This document shows, piece by piece, positions 3,520 to 40,510 of a stretch of 64,000 bases of DNA (positions within the stretch are counted from its first letter, which is position 1; the number at the start of each line of letters is the position of its first letter). The position numbers and the translations under genes are program-made. The stretch is from sequence record OZ346187.1; one strand, given 5' to 3'. The stretch comes from a phage. A model generated the notes under the pieces. The model saw nothing but the letters and a program-made list of their open reading frames with translations, was not told where the DNA came from and searched no databases.

Positions 3520-4560
3520 ATGTCAAAACCTAGTTTTCCATTAGAGATTTGGGCAGAGGAGGATCAGGTTCTGCCTAACACCCACAGACAGAACAGGCTA
3601 CGCCCGATTGATGATTTGTGGAGAAAAGGTTGGGATCTTGGTCAAAAGCCCTCATGTGAAGAACTTAACTATATTTTCAATATGCTCGGAACTTGGGCAA
3701 AATACATTGCTGACGAGCAGATCCCCGCTCAAGAAGGCCGTTATCTGGTACGTGATAATAACTTGAGTGATCTTTTGAACATTCCTGTTGCCCGTAGAAA
3801 CCTTGGGATTATTACTAAGGAAGAGGCAGACGCCAGGTATGTAAAAGTTACAGGTGATACAATGACAGGCCCATTGGGTTTGCAACGTATCAACTTTAAA
3901 GCTGCAGAGTCAGATAAGGCTTGGATAGAGACAACTATTGGCCCAGATAAGACAACTCTCGACTTTGGGTTAAGTGATAATACCGGGTCGTTTGATGATG
4001 GTGGTACATCTACAGTGGATGCGTTCCGTTGGAGATTCCAGCCAACTCAGCCGGATATTAATCCAGAGTTCACTTTGATGTACCTTAACGCGATCACGGC
4101 TAACCGTGCGCTGTTGAAAGTGGTAGGCAATGTTGAAGTTGTCGATAACATGAGGTGCAATAACCTTACTATCAGCAATACAGCGACATTCACCAACTGT
4201 AATGTGGCTAGTCAGTTGACGGCTGGGTCAGTGTATGTTAATGGTGGTGCAAGTTGTGACAGTATGGTTGTAAGAAGCCAGCACTGTGTTGTCGGTAACA
4301 GAAATGTGGTTCGCTCTGTGAACGGAGTGACGGCTAACGGTAACGGTGATGTAACGATCACTATCCCGCAGACAGGTGTGCAAGACATCAGAATCGGTGC
4401 AAGACTTGTGGACGGAGTTTCTGAATCTCCAATCCGCAACGGCTACGTTGTCACAGGCTGGCATTTCGGTGACAAAAAAGAGATGCGTGGTTCAACCTAC
4501 TGGGCAGGACCTTTACAAAAACTTGTAAATGGTCAATGGATCACTGTTAATTATGCATAG
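3520..4560 (+). CDS. putative tail fibre / receptor-binding protein, paralog 1 (346 aa)
   Basis: RBS AGGAGA; N-terminal PLEIWA motif and C-terminal KLVNGQWITVNYA shared with ORF 5575-6618; Gly/Thr/Asn-rich central region. Confidence 0.6.
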   Translation: MSKPSFPLEIWAEEDQVLPNTHRQNRLRPIDDLWRKGWDLGQKPSCEELNYIFNMLGTWAKYIADEQIPAQEGRYLVRDNNLSDLLNIPVARRNLGIITKEEADARYVKVTGDTMTGPLGLQRINFKAAESDKAWIETTIGPDKTTLDFGLSDNTGSFDDGGTSTVDAFRWRFQPTQPDINPEFTLMYLNAITANRALLKVVGNVEVVDNMRCNNLTISNTATFTNCNVASQLTAGSVYVNGGASCDSMVVRSQHCVVGNRNVVRSVNGVTANGNGDVTITIPQTGVQDIRIGARLVDGVSESPIRNGYVVTGWHFGDKKEMRGSTYWAGPLQKLVNGQWITVNYA

Positions 4561-4574
4561 ATCGGAGGACTAGC

Positions 4575-5159
4575 ATGAAAATACTTCAAGAGTTTAAACT
4601 TTACCAACCGGGATCTGGCGAATACCGCACCAACAAGGAAACCAAGGAGCTGACCCCTCAAGAGGTTGAGGATTACACAGCATACACTGGGTATTTTTTA
4701 CGTAATGATGATGGCGATTGGTATGTGCAGTCACGAACATTACGACAAGAAAATCCGGGGTGTATCTTCCTACTTGTTGACGAGAAGGGAATTCTTAAGA
4801 CATCTACAGAAGAACCTGATGCCTTATGGCCTGCTCCAGGTCTTCGTGTGGTTATCGCCAAAAAAGAAGAGGTACCAGAAAACATTATGCTTCACCACGA
4901 CGCTTTGCGTTTAGTTGGTGATGAATTTGTCACAGACAATGAATTCTTTGTTCAACAGGCAGAGGGTGTCATAGAGACAGAACTTGCTTGGGCTACTGCT
5001 AGAATTGGTGCCTATCAAGACATGATTGACCTTGAATATGATCTTACTGATGACCAGAAACGTAACATCAGAGATTTGAAAATGTACAGGGTAAAACTTC
5101 TTGAAATAGATACATCTAAAGCCCCTGACATTTTCTTCCCGGAGCGACCTACCCTCTAA
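4575..5159 (+). CDS. hypothetical protein (194 aa)
   Basis: ATG with GGAGGA RBS; sits between the fibre paralogs (chaperone-like position), no motif. Confidence 0.5.
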   Translation: MKILQEFKLYQPGSGEYRTNKETKELTPQEVEDYTAYTGYFLRNDDGDWYVQSRTLRQENPGCIFLLVDEKGILKTSTEEPDALWPAPGLRVVIAKKEEVPENIMLHHDALRLVGDEFVTDNEFFVQQAEGVIETELAWATARIGAYQDMIDLEYDLTDDQKRNIRDLKMYRVKLLEIDTSKAPDIFFPERPTL

Positions 5160-36487: not shown

Positions 36488-39400
36488 ATGAGTATGTGGA
36501 ATTTTGACTTTGAGGCCTCAGGTCTTCTGGACGAGGAAGATCTTTACTACCATTGTGGCCTGTTTAAAGAGTTGAATAAAAATAATTTTATGTTGTTTTT
36601 GCCTATCAATGATAGATCTCATTACAGTGAAGAGGAGGTTGAAAAAGCAAAACAATTTATGCTGGCAAAGCAAGATATCTATCCTAGCTGCTCTGTCCGT
36701 ATTGCGGATTTCAGCCAGCTTGAATGGTGGTTAACCGGGAACTCCGATTGGTCACCCACATCATTAAGTTGTCACAACTGTTTTAGTTATGACTTTATCT
36801 TGATGGAGAAGCTGTCTGGTATTCATTTTGATATGTTCCGTGATCCCAAGTGTATGGGGACAATCAATAATCATCAGGTGAACCTGTTCGACACTCTGCC
36901 AATGAGTCGTATACTATGGCCCGACAGACCGTTACCTAAAGGATGCCCTGATTCTGTATACAATCCTGTTACAAAACGTATGCAGCAGGTAGGTCCTCAT
37001 GGCCTAATGGCGTGGGGGTACGCTTTAGGAAACCAGAAGGTTAAAATTGATGACTGGAGAAATTTACCTCTGTGGAAGTATGTTGATCGTGTATTCGAGG
37101 ACGTTATCATCCAGGAGCTGCTCTGGAAAGAGCTGGTAGCGGAATCAAAAGGTGTATTCTACGGCAAATCTGACATGCAGAACTTTATGTACGATCCAGC
37201 CAAAGAGAAGCCGAAAGGGTTCAAGAAGATTACCTGGAAGAATGCATTACGCCGAGGCATGCTGCAGCACTTCCTGATGGAGCTGCAGGCCCGTCAGGGT
37301 GTATACTTCGACATAGATGGAGCTATTGCTTTACGTGACCGTTGCGATGCGTGGATGAAAGAAATCGCTGATCGTGTTGAACCACAACTACCTTTAAAAG
37401 AGCTGTCAATGTCTCAGCGGCCCAAGTTCCCTGAAAAGCCGTTTAACCAAGACGGGACAATCTCTAATAATGGTTGGAAATGGTTAAAAGATAAGCTTGG
37501 CTATCCTGTAGACATGAGTGCTTTAGAGTTCAAAGCCCCGCCTAAGCGAGCATTTACCTCTACAGGAGATGTCAGCAAGATGGGGATAAAATGGTGTGAA
37601 GAGATGGGCTGCAAAGACCCCGATAAGATGGCTGATTTCTTGAGAGGCTATATTAAGGGCACCTCCACACCACAACCCTTACCTAAAGAGCTGATGGATC
37701 AGGCAATAAGTGATCTGCAGCAGAAGCGAATGCCTGACTGCAAGATACCTATGAAAATCAGCAATCAGGACGACATCAAGCGATACCTAATCAGTGCTGG
37801 TTGGCTCCCAACAATGTGGAGAACTAAAGATGTAACTAAAGACAGCAAGAAGAAAGCTTTACCTGATGCAGATGTTGATGCACGAGTATATGCATATATG
37901 GACGAGCTTTTGGAGTCAGAGTATTGTGACCTAATTATCAACTTCTGGAACAAAACTGATGCTAAGTTCCAGACAACCGTGCACAAGTTCCGAAGCTTTC
38001 CTAACTCCGAAAGGATTAAAAAGGAAGTATTCGGGAAAATACGTAGAAAAGCCAGGGCACTTATTACTTCTCCGCAACTGAAAGATACGTTTGGACACCT
38101 ATGCCCAAATCTTGAAAAATTGAACGGAGAGATGGCTAAAGATATCGTCTTGTGGTTATCATTGCGAAACCGCAGATCGGTCCTTGATCCAATCAAGGAG
38201 GATAAGGTTGATACTGGTCTTCTTAATCACCCACGTTTGAAGATTGACCATAAGCTTCCTGCTAAAAGCTCTGGATTAACAAACACTTCCAGACAGAAAC
38301 ACAGTATTTGTGCAAACATGCCTAAACCATCTCCTAAAGTGGTTATGGGTAAAGAGATGCGTAGTCTGTGGGGTGTTCCTCCGGGATACTTTGAGATCGG
38401 TATTGACGGGTCCAACTTAGAGCAGCTTATCGGGGCTTGGGGTGCCTTTGAGTTCGACAACGGCCTGTATTATGATGTTGTAAGTAATGGCGATGCACAC
38501 TGTTATTCAGGAGATACACAAATTCTCACGGAGAAAGGGTGGGTGAGGTTTGAAGATCTTGATCCGGGAACACAAGTGTTCCAGTACGATCACAACACCT
38601 CGTCAATGAACCTTGTTACTCCATTAAATTACGTTAAGCGTAGTTATTGTGGGGATATGTATCATTTCCACAACAGTAGTGTGGATTTTATGGTTACAGA
38701 TCAACACAGGATGCTGACTGTGGATCACAGAAGCAATAAATTGTTTGAAGATTTGGCAAAAGACCTGAAAGCAGGTAAAGGGTCTAATTCAGGAAGAAGG
38801 TTTATCCATGCGGCAGAGTTTTATGGGAATACAACCTTATCTCCTGCCCAGGTTAATTTGCTTATTGCTATTCACGATGATGGGCACTTGCATACAAATA
38901 AGGACGGCAGCATCGTGTGCAGGATTCAGGTCGGAAAGGGAAGAAAAGTTGCAACGCTTTTAGATACTTTTTCTGCTCTAAGCCTTAGTTATGTAGAGCA
39001 GAGCGGGAAAACCACAAAAGGGGGCTTACTGGCGAGAAGGTTCCAATTCCACGTTCCGTCCTGGGTATTTGAGTTTTTGGACAACAATAAGGATTTCACC
39101 TATAACCTGATGAACCTTGATAAAGAATCTAAAAACCTGTTTATAGCTTCTTTATCTAACTGGGACGGGTGGGTATCTTCCGAAGGTGGAAAGGTTGCTT
39201 ACTACTCCCAGGCCGAGTGCAGGAAGAAATCTGTAGAGGTGGTGTCTGCGCTGGCTACTCAGTGTGGTTTACGGAATAATACGGTGGCGATTCACAAAAA
39301 AGGTCGTGCCGTGCAGCACAGAATCACAATTGGTAGCAAACAGAGAGCAGGGTTGCTGACACTATCTAAAGAGTCTGTCGAGGTGAGCGGTTCTTTGGTT

Positions 39401-39886
39401 TATTGCGTTACCGTCCCTTCTGGAGCAATCATTGTGAGAAGGAATGGTAAAGTGGCAGTGTGCGGTAACTGTAATAACGCCAAAGCTTACTCTTCTGTAG
39501 CAGGCAAGGAGATTTCCCGTAACGATGGTAAACCTATCACGTATGGGGTTATGTATGGGGCACAAAAAGATAAAGTTGCAGATATGCTGGACATCTCCCC
39601 AGAGTTGGGACAAAGGGTAATCGATGCACTCTGGGATGCCAACCCAGGTCTTAAGGGGCGCAAAGAGGATCTGGAGAAATTCTGGGAAGCAACAGGTAAG
39701 AAGTTTATCTACTCTTTTGATGGTCATGCTATCTGGACCCGATCTAAACACTCTTTACTTAATGCATACCAACAAAATGGCGGTGCATCGTTGTGTGACT
39801 TAGTTGGAATACTCATGCACCACCAGATGGTGAAGCGTGGGTGGTACGATGAAGGTGTTCGTCGTATTATTTATTACCATAAATAA
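36488..39886 (+). CDS. family A (Pol I/T7-like) DNA polymerase with 3'-5' exonuclease domain, interrupted by an intein (1132 aa)
   Basis: Exo I-like NFDFEASGL at the N-terminus; motif A-like IDGSNLEQL followed by GDAH; motif B-like RNDGKPITYGVMYG after the insertion. Confidence 0.85.
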   Translation: MSMWNFDFEASGLLDEEDLYYHCGLFKELNKNNFMLFLPINDRSHYSEEEVEKAKQFMLAKQDIYPSCSVRIADFSQLEWWLTGNSDWSPTSLSCHNCFSYDFILMEKLSGIHFDMFRDPKCMGTINNHQVNLFDTLPMSRILWPDRPLPKGCPDSVYNPVTKRMQQVGPHGLMAWGYALGNQKVKIDDWRNLPLWKYVDRVFEDVIIQELLWKELVAESKGVFYGKSDMQNFMYDPAKEKPKGFKKITWKNALRRGMLQHFLMELQARQGVYFDIDGAIALRDRCDAWMKEIADRVEPQLPLKELSMSQRPKFPEKPFNQDGTISNNGWKWLKDKLGYPVDMSALEFKAPPKRAFTSTGDVSKMGIKWCEEMGCKDPDKMADFLRGYIKGTSTPQPLPKELMDQAISDLQQKRMPDCKIPMKISNQDDIKRYLISAGWLPTMWRTKDVTKDSKKKALPDADVDARVYAYMDELLESEYCDLIINFWNKTDAKFQTTVHKFRSFPNSERIKKEVFGKIRRKARALITSPQLKDTFGHLCPNLEKLNGEMAKDIVLWLSLRNRRSVLDPIKEDKVDTGLLNHPRLKIDHKLPAKSSGLTNTSRQKHSICANMPKPSPKVVMGKEMRSLWGVPPGYFEIGIDGSNLEQLIGAWGAFEFDNGLYYDVVSNGDAHCYSGDTQILTEKGWVRFEDLDPGTQVFQYDHNTSSMNLVTPLNYVKRSYCGDMYHFHNSSVDFMVTDQHRMLTVDHRSNKLFEDLAKDLKAGKGSNSGRRFIHAAEFYGNTTLSPAQVNLLIAIHDDGHLHTNKDGSIVCRIQVGKGRKVATLLDTFSALSLSYVEQSGKTTKGGLLARRFQFHVPSWVFEFLDNNKDFTYNLMNLDKESKNLFIASLSNWDGWVSSEGGKVAYYSQAECRKKSVEVVSALATQCGLRNNTVAIHKKGRAVQHRITIGSKQRAGLLTLSKESVEVSGSLVYCVTVPSGAIIVRRNGKVAVCGNCNNAKAYSSVAGKEISRNDGKPITYGVMYGAQKDKVADMLDISPELGQRVIDALWDANPGLKGRKEDLEKFWEATGKKFIYSFDGHAIWTRSKHSLLNAYQQNGGASLCDLVGILMHHQMVKRGWYDEGVRRIIYYHK
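38501..39469 (+). mobile_element. intein with LAGLIDADG-like homing endonuclease domain inserted in the DNA polymerase (323 aa)
   Basis: In-frame insertion between GDAH and motif B; starts CYSGDTQILTEKG (Hint block A), ends ...VYCVTVPSGAIIVRRNGKVAVCGN then Cys +1; internal LLIAIHDDGH and FIASLSNWDGW resemble LAGLIDADG motifs. Confidence 0.65.
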
Positions 39887-40153
39887 CATTGTGGCTTCAT
39901 AGAGTAATCTATGTCGAATAACCTCTTTAACTGCGGGAAGCCTAAACCTTATGGCAAGGTAATCCGCAACGAAGCGCTCAAAAGAGCGAACGCTCAGAGG
40001 CCATTCCGAAAGGAAGTAGACCAGCAAGTGCGGTCGAAATGGGAGGATTCCTGTGGTTGCTTATCATAGGAATATGAGATGGTCCGATCCTACGTGAAAA
40101 CGTATGGCTATGCACGTAATGGTGCGGGGTAGCTTAACGACCTACCTGAACTA

Positions 40154-40510
40154 TTGGATGAGTACCAACTTCAAGTGCCTGACACACCGAAGTATAAGAC
40201 TGTGTACACCTTCGACACAATTGAAGAACTGGAAGCATTTAAGGCAGAGCAGGAAGCCAAACTTCATGTGTTCGACGGTCATAAGTACAAAAAGGCACGC
40301 AAGGATGAGGACGGAAACGAAGTGGTTGACAGAGACGGAAACACGGTGTACGATCCTATCCTGAACGATGACGGAAAGCTTGAACTTATCTGGAGCCCTG
40401 TGGGTGAAATGGTGGTACATTGCTTCTGGCAAGCTTCTAAAATGATGGGAGTCCCGTTCCAGATCACAGGTGAATACTTGTGTGGTCGTAATTGGGGTGA
40501 TTGTCACTAA
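40154..40510 (+). CDS. hypothetical protein (118 aa)
   Basis: ORF with TTG start in track; start uncertain. Confidence 0.35.
   Translation: MDEYQLQVPDTPKYKTVYTFDTIEELEAFKAEQEAKLHVFDGHKYKKARKDEDGNEVVDRDGNTVYDPILNDDGKLELIWSPVGEMVVHCFWQASKMMGVPFQITGEYLCGRNWGDCH

Follow-up and report, generated by a model that had tools for sequence, protein, structure and literature searches.

Inteins that lack the penultimate histidine of block G (position 6, a common but not obligatory residue) are documented to splice (PMC5050341, PMC7891396). The Bethlehem RDF intein, from a mycobacteriophage phosphoesterase, splices essentially to completion; when its Gly316 is changed to His (G316H), precursor accumulates and splicing is slow. 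Kelley et al. (2016, PMC5050341), who reported these results, also found the endonuclease of this intein to be toxic to E. coli. In the split intein AceL NrdHF (6zgq), the histidines of block F and of the penultimate position are both missing (Hoffmann et al. 2020, PMC7891396). There, the C-terminal scissile carbonyl accepts a hydrogen bond from Arg69, located at block B position 11, and the mutant R69A splices more slowly; G145H abolishes activity through a clash with the same arginine, and block F is reshaped by a Pro-Gly kink (PMC7891396). Here, we describe an insert in the family A DNA polymerase gene of an rV5-like E. coli phage (Vequintavirus), found in a 64,000-nt stretch of DNA (sequence record OZ346187.1; hereafter the window) and ending in Gly-Asn. 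Our analysis confirms that this insert is a genuine intein with a LAGLIDADG homing endonuclease. We further consider it probable that the intein is functional and recently mobile, being spliced from the polymerase precursor by class 1 chemistry and spread by LAGLIDADG-driven homing.

The polymerase region is 90–99% identical in DNA sequence to that of rV5-like Escherichia phages of the genus Vequintavirus. Its open reading frame (ORF), at 36488-39886 (+), lies after a primase-helicase gene; it has matches among phage DNA polymerase families (PHROG 17, E 1e-81) and a weak one to Pfam DNA_pol_A. Translation of positions 38501-39469 on the same strand gives 323 codons with no stop (CYSGDTQIL...GKVAVCGN); the insert protein begins CYSGDTQILTEKGW and ends RRNGKVAVCGN, and Cys is encoded next (39470-39472). 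Upstream stands ...VVSNGDAH and downstream CNNAKAYSSVAGKEISRNDGKPITYGVMYG, which constitutes motif B. BLAST alignments to intein-less relatives are interrupted exactly at 38500/38501, and the insert measures exactly 969 nt against both MaxTheCat and rV5. The empty polymerase site in these two phages is ...AACGGGGACGCACAC|CAAAACAATGCTGAGGC...; they read GDAH|QNNAEAYTKVAGREVS (GDAH|QNNAE...), where the window reads GDAH-(323 aa)-CNNAKAYSSVAGKEIS (GDAH-(intein)-CNNAK...). Among 134 related phage records, seven carry the insert and 127 lack it, with a clean junction. Removal of the insert and of a downstream intron in silico yields a 925-aa protein that is collinear with T7 gp5 through the junction. 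In this alignment, NGDAH|CNN pairs with NGDIH|TKN of T7 gp5, with motif A (GIDGSNLE) upstream of the insert and motif B (RNDGKPITYGVMYG) downstream. The insertion lies directly after the residue aligned to T7 His506, which we take to contact the incoming nucleotide. Translation, BLAST and the T7 gp5 alignment thus bear out a preliminary description, made from the letters of this DNA alone: its coordinates and sequence features are correct, and the insert does lie between the GDAH segment and motif B. The empty target site that this description expected in intein-less relatives is seen in MaxTheCat and rV5, and the extein junctions that it proposed are supported by the exact indel and by the collinearity of the spliced product with T7 gp5.

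Homologues of the insert occur well outside polymerases. The full 323 aa (residues 1-323, 100% coverage) recur at 25–40% identity inside unrelated phage proteins, including nicotinamide phosphoribosyltransferase (NAMPT), NrdA, NrdB, PhoH, ThyA, primase-helicase and other PolA, with 25–30% for the matches in NAMPT, both ribonucleotide reductase subunits, PhoH, ThyA and another PolA; Pfam searches of sampled host proteins returned the small chain of ribonucleotide reductase, DNA_pol_A and DnaB/Toprim. Against 1.84 billion cluster representatives, each standing for a cluster at 50% identity, an exhaustive search with HMMER detected 7698 relatives with E≤1e-3, of which 2145 reach E≤1e-10. The family therefore holds at least 2145 such clusters at the stricter threshold; it is very large and mostly phage-borne. 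Most of the best 150 matches span residues 1-323, at varying positions in proteins of 353–2583 aa. A word-indexed protein search with the intein alone gave no match at E≤1e-3, a result that reflects limited sensitivity and not absence, because the exhaustive search found thousands of relatives. A six-frame scan of the window with the family profile detected this locus only and no second intein. That the 323 residues are a conserved native domain of related polymerases, the outcome the preliminary description had named as fatal to its proposal, is contradicted by the 127 records without them; a native polymerase domain is rejected on two grounds, the precise limits of the indel and the presence of homologues in unrelated proteins.

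Some members of the family reside in proteins of unusual composition. Six or seven separate stretches matching the N-terminal region of the intein are found in P0066 (2583 aa), P0025, P0013, P0070 and others, which are therefore hosts with many inteins. In these multi-intein hosts the match is limited to the first 72–100 residues. This suggests that related splicing domains may be combined with different central domains.

A confident AlphaFold2 model built from a 35-sequence family alignment (predicted local distance difference test, pLDDT, 94.2; predicted template modelling score, pTM, 0.91) has a predicted HINT fold, with Foldseek in agreement, and the family profile matches AceL NrdHF (6zgq) with E 1.9e-14 over aa 6-105. 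The preliminary description had held that the want of a Hint-fold prediction would count against an intein; such a fold is predicted. Residue statistics were drawn from the best 150 matches of one search, a sample biased toward query-like sequences, with conservation counted on 133 full-length members and the termini and +1 residue on 132 database members. Cys1, His69 of block B and Cys302 at block F position 4 (codon at 39404-39406) are invariant in all 133, and so is Thr or Ser at position 66. The penultimate Gly322 is kept in 130 members, and position 323 is Asn in 120 and Gln in 11; the codons for Gly-Asn in the window lie at 39464-39469. By the second count, the family ends in Gly-Asn (116 members), Gly-Gln (11) or otherwise (5), followed at +1 by Cys in 79, Ser in 40 and Thr in 12. 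The proposal that the insert is an intein is thus well supported: it is absent from orthologues, is found in unrelated host proteins and has a predicted HINT fold, and Cys1, TxxH, the terminal Asn and Cys+1 are all present.

The central part of the insert resembles LAGLIDADG enzymes of known structure in both fold and profile. The family consensus is LLxAxQADG for motif 1 and FxxELxxWDG for motif 2 (FIASLSNWDG in the window), with about 95 residues between them that include a conserved Lys197. Asp127 is kept in 127 of the 133 members and Asp222 in 128. The family profile matches PI-PkoII (E 1e-8 to 7e-10), the TliVMA intein, PI-PfuI and I-DmoI (E 4e-6), and in all four the acidic residues of the LAGLIDADG motifs align with Asp127 and Asp222. 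Pfam LAGLIDADG_3 was matched by 9 of 24 family members. The two LAGLIDADG-like segments noticed earlier are therefore real, since their acidic residues are conserved and align with those of solved intein endonucleases. An HNH or GIY-YIG endonuclease was considered as well, and no such profile or fold match was obtained for the insert. The central domain is best described as a putative monomeric, two-motif LAGLIDADG homing endonuclease; the conserved residues, a ratio of nonsynonymous to synonymous substitution rates (dN/dS) of about 0.1 and the mosaic distribution suggest that it would cleave the intein-less allele site-specifically.

The Gly-Asn ending was singled out in the preliminary description as a departure from the usual His-Asn. 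The penultimate residue is indeed Gly instead of His; the ending is less unusual than was implied, with Gly shared by nearly the whole family sample. The Bethlehem RDF intein belongs to this family, because it scores 145.7 bits against the family profile; it has Cys at residue 95 and ends ...HLTG316N|S. The window copy also matches the AceL NrdHF layout (C124...P128-G129...G145-N146), with H69-R70-M71, C302-V-T-V-P306-S-G308 and G322-N323, one residue further along in block B. From these AceL-like features we infer, by analogy, that Arg70 may replace the missing histidine and that Gly322 may be needed sterically.

The precursor, translated from intron-spliced mRNA, would comprise an N-extein of 671 aa, the 323-aa intein and a C-extein of 254 aa. 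Protein splicing would convert it to a 925-aa family A DNA polymerase with the junction ...NGDAH-CNNAK.... By the class 1 route, an N-S acyl shift at Cys1 would be assisted by Thr66 and His69 of block B, the thioester would pass to Cys+1, cyclisation of Asn323 would release the intein, and an S-N shift would restore the peptide bond. In place of the block F His and the penultimate His, both absent, Arg70 would contact the C-terminal scissile carbonyl, as its counterpart does in AceL NrdHF; a side chain larger than that of Gly322 would clash with it.

Evidence for mobility comes from comparison of the intein with its flanks. The N-extein (2013 nt) is 98.6% identical to that of intein-less MaxTheCat and only 88–90% identical to those of intein-bearing phages. 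The intein itself (969 nt), missing from MaxTheCat, is 97.7–98.5% identical to the copies in six intein-bearing phages and 88.9% identical to the seventh. The first 30 nt of the C-extein are 100% identical in the same six phages and 90% in the seventh. Against intein-less alleles, the start of the C-extein is not alignable by blastn; 13 of the first 27 nt differ, and Gln takes the place of Cys+1. Such a pattern would be expected had a MaxTheCat-like genome received the intein together with a short co-converted tract that includes the obligatory Cys+1. Relative to the most divergent copy, the overall dN/dS is 0.10, with 0.06 for the N-terminal splicing part and 0.10 for the endonuclease part (range for the endonuclease domain, 0.08–0.16); with values near 0.1 in both parts, both activities therefore appear to be under purifying selection. 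The termini are identical in all eight copies. Taken together, sequence mosaicism and low dN/dS point to recent homing and purifying selection. The GDxH| site is also occupied by related inteins in five other divergent PolA clusters, and these same-site inteins tend to be the closest relatives outside Vequintavirus (31–40% identity). At least five other divergent lineages of family A polymerase thus share the insertion point directly after the His506-aligned residue, which makes it a recurrent intein site. During co-infection, the endonuclease (D127, D222, K197) would cut the empty site, about ...GGGGACGCACAC|CAAAACAATGCT..., in intein-less polymerase genes, and repair from the intein-bearing allele would copy the intein together with about 27 nt of downstream extein, Cys+1 codon included.

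Several considerations weigh against a functional, mobile class 1 intein. The window copy itself gives no Pfam LAGLIDADG match. The intein-specific profile search proposed in the preliminary description did return N-terminal matches to Hint_2 and TIGR01445, but both fall below the curated cut-offs (23.6 versus 28.4 bits for Pfam Hint_2, and 14.4 versus 24.5 for TIGR01445). The domain type was settled by the family alignment and the structure model, because the curated profiles gave only sub-threshold Hint or intein matches and none to LAGLIDADG. Splicing and DNA cleavage by the window copy are presumed by analogy with relatives, and the role suggested for Arg70 is carried over from AceL NrdHF, with Arg found at that position in only 81 of the 133 members. 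Assignment to class 1 rests on the convention that Cys1 is present. In AceL NrdHF, the nearest solved relative, the first nucleophile is the homologous block F Cys (class 3; PMC7891396), a residue that is invariant in the family. Finally, ordinary recombination between co-infecting phages, with no endonuclease involved, could give the same mosaic.

The strongest competing explanation, which we consider unlikely but credible, is that splicing is class 3-like or employs two nucleophiles: the block F Cys302 would attack the N-terminal junction, and a branched thioester would then pass to Cys+1, instead of or in relay with Cys1. Besides the invariance of the block F Cys, this idea draws on residue G:5, directly before the Gly, which is Thr or Ser in 97 of the 133 members, as in the class 3 triplet. 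It draws also on the homologous Cys124 of AceL NrdHF (an intein with Ala1), the proven branch-point nucleophile, modelled 3.0 Å from the N-scissile carbonyl (PMC7891396). Two same-site members, P0012 (KLPHYTEYLT) and P0037 (AFPVSSQLLT), seemingly lack Cys1 and keep the block F Cys; however, the N-terminal boundaries of these variants are not firmly aligned. Cys1, moreover, is just as invariant as Cys302 among the full-length members, as class 1 requires, whereas class 3 is defined by the absence of Cys or Ser at position 1. Of the Trp-Cys-Thr triplet (B:12, F:4, G:5), the window copy has Met71, Cys302 and Cys321, so that Cys302 alone matches; AceL NrdHF, which is class 3, has Met-Cys-Thr. Kelley et al. 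(2016) placed penultimate-Gly phage inteins, including Bethlehem RDF, in class 1 (PMC5050341). On balance, the class 1 route is more likely than a class 3-like or relay route. For the clade as a whole, we give the same small credence to the use of the block F Cys as a working nucleophile even where Cys1 is present, through a relay or a redundant route. If this were true, the clade would form a living link from class 1 to class 3 splicing, and not an ordinary class 1 group.

Tandem inteins are found at the same polymerase site in three family A polymerases, P0011, P0012 and P0037. In each, two inteins adjoin: Cys1 of the second (CLSSDTELLT and similar) comes straight after the ...(S/T)GN end of the first. 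The first intein seemingly starts with Ser, Lys or Ala and keeps the block F Cys, its N-terminal boundary not being firmly aligned. Such first inteins would be class 3-like.

It is also conceivable, though in our judgment decidedly unlikely, that the element splices but is immobile, with an inactive endonuclease and a patchy distribution produced by vertical descent, loss and general recombination. The motif 1 of the window copy reads HDDG where the family has QADG, significant Pfam LAGLIDADG similarity is wanting, and phage genomes recombine freely, with identity varying along this polymerase gene. Against this stand the retention of both catalytic Asp residues and Lys197, and the low dN/dS of the endonuclease domain. 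Phages whose flanking polymerase is only 88–90% identical to that of the window share an intein that is about 98% identical, and the closely related polymerase of MaxTheCat, at 98.6% N-extein identity, has an empty site. Toxicity in E. coli has been reported for the endonuclease of one family member (PMC5050341).

We see next to no prospect that the insert is something other than an intein, be it a polymerase domain native to this lineage or a free-standing endonuclease gene that became fused and is kept in the mature enzyme: standard intein profiles stay under their curated cut-offs and none of the seven GenBank records annotates an intein, but 127 of 134 close relatives lack the insert with a clean junction, it sits between motifs A and B directly after the His506-aligned residue, every splice-junction residue is present and invariant in the family, the predicted fold is HINT, and the same element occurs inside many unrelated proteins.

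Table 1. Coordinates of the intein, its parts and the surrounding polymerase gene in the window
Feature	Position	Strand	Details
N-extein, first 671 codons of family A DNA polymerase	36488..38500	+	exonuclease domain, motif A, end ...SNGDAH; PHROG, T7 gp5 alignment
Intein, 323 codons, Cys1...Gly322-Asn323	38501..39469	+	exact 969-nt indel, homologues in unrelated genes, fold
HINT splicing domain, N-terminal half, aa 1-105	38501..38815	+	Cys1 38501-38503; block B T66-D-Q-H69-R70-M71 38696-38713
LAGLIDADG homing endonuclease domain, aa ~106-285	38816..39355	+	two motifs, conserved K197
LAGLIDADG motif 1 LLIAIHDDG, aa 120-128, D127-G128	38858-38884	+	
LAGLIDADG motif 2 IASLSNWDG, aa 215-223, D222-G223	39143-39169	+	
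HINT domain, C-terminal part, aa 286-323	39356..39469	+	block F VYC302VTVPSG, RRNG turn, block G VAVC321-G322-N323
C-extein, rest of exon 1	39470..39880	+	137 codons, motif B RNDGKPITYGVMYG, ends ...IIYYH
Cys+1 codon and 27-nt extein tract travelling with the intein (co-conversion or adaptation tract)	39470..39496	+	identity among intein-bearing phages
Group I intron, 276 nt, no ORF	39881..40156	+	Rfam RF00028 64.7 bits vs gathering score 50, match 39871-40106
Polymerase exon 2	40157..40510	+	117 codons + stop; starts DEYQLQV, ends ...GRNWGDCH

The earlier reading had missed a group I intron in the same gene, which lies 411 nt past the end of the intein (Table 1). It lies between the His and the Asp-Glu of polymerase motif C, where YYH|DEYQL aligns with WVH|DEIQV of T7. 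Its limits are fixed because NHEP1 has an intron-less allele, ...TATTACCAT|GACGAA... (...IIYYH DEYQLQV...); the 5′ exon ends in U and the intron in G. Because this intron follows, the ORF stop at 39884-39886 is intronic and the polymerase runs on to 40510. The polymerase of MaxTheCat is likewise annotated as a two-piece join. In Mangalyan and VB-EcoM-WM, a 507-nt HNH gene lies inside this intron, whereas the intron of the window has no ORF. An Rfam scan of the window at the gathering score gave no second intron. The mature polymerase needs both RNA splicing and protein splicing.

Two further observations concern the polymerase locus in related records. In phage 241Ecol014PP, an HNH endonuclease gene (4544-5011) lies directly downstream of polymerase exon 2, a place taken by a small hypothetical gene in the window and other relatives; the HNH gene is a further mobile-element polymorphism at this locus. 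Separately, 16 MG0656xx records named 'Campylobacter phage' (host Campylobacter jejuni) are 92–93% identical to this E. coli rV5-like polymerase gene, and their host label looks doubtful.

None of the seven intein-bearing GenBank records annotates the intein, probably because the curated profiles stay below threshold. The polymerase of the window phage and of its seven deposited relatives is mis-annotated, as a truncated ORF, a 'hypothetical protein' or one long polymerase. YP-6 and EPFV3 have their intein-bearing polymerase called 'hypothetical protein'. In the rV5 RefSeq entry (NC_011041), the polymerase is split into gp223 and gp220, and small 'hypothetical' ORFs are called inside the intron; among the records examined, MaxTheCat alone joins both exons across it. 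We found no mention of an intein in any Vequintavirus DNA polymerase in the searchable literature or in GenBank annotation. The papers describing the intein-bearing phages Mangalyan and NHEP1 mention neither intein nor intron, and literature searches on inteins in Vequintavirus or rV5 turned up none but those that sit in other genes of Certrevirus, a related genus. LAGLIDADG inteins, penultimate-Gly phage inteins and genes with both an intein and an intron are already known. The family pattern, with Cys1 and the block F Cys both invariant, a penultimate Gly and a class 3 intein as nearest solved relative, might interest specialists, and may already be known to curators of intein alignments. 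The locus offers a clean example of recent intein homing in a well-sampled coliphage genus, with donor-like and recipient-like alleles and a co-converted tract identified. Presence or absence of the intein and the intron would also provide easy polymerase chain reaction markers for Vequintavirus typing. Given complete or fast splicing in both tested Gly-Asn relatives, the window copy could be a candidate tool for protein engineering.

How does this intein compare with known systems? The solved archaeal and yeast inteins, namely the TliVMA intein, PI-PkoII, PI-PfuI and PI-SceI, are only 13–16% identical to the window copy. They are larger, have extra DNA-recognition or stirrup regions, and show the canonical block F Asp and a His-Asn end. 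Pectobacterium phage CB7 belongs to the same virus subfamily as the window phage (Vequintavirinae); its NrdA gene, like the window polymerase, combines an intein and a group I intron in one gene of replication or nucleotide metabolism (PMC7344957). The CB7 DNA polymerase has also been reported to contain introns (PMC7344957). CB7 differs in the genes that its inteins interrupt, which are those of the helicase, NrdA and NrdB but not that of the DNA polymerase, and in the HNH genes carried by its polymerase introns. AceL NrdHF provides the closest solved splicing domain. It shares with the window copy the block B (S/T)xxH-R-M, a block F Cys followed by the Pro-Gly kink, the absence of both the block F His and the penultimate His, and the Gly-Asn end. 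It differs in having Ala1, a class 3 route, Ser at +1 and no LAGLIDADG domain; in nature it is a split intein whose halves flank a free-standing gene for a GIY-YIG endonuclease. The Bethlehem RDF intein differs in host protein and insertion site, has Ser at +1 where the window has Cys, comes from an actinophage instead of a coliphage, and is distant in sequence. It is nonetheless of the same sequence family and of similar length (317 versus 323 aa), it too is phage-borne in a replication-related protein, and it shares with the window copy Cys1, the block B TxxH-R, the Cys at block F position 4, the LAGLIDADG endonuclease and the Gly-Asn end.

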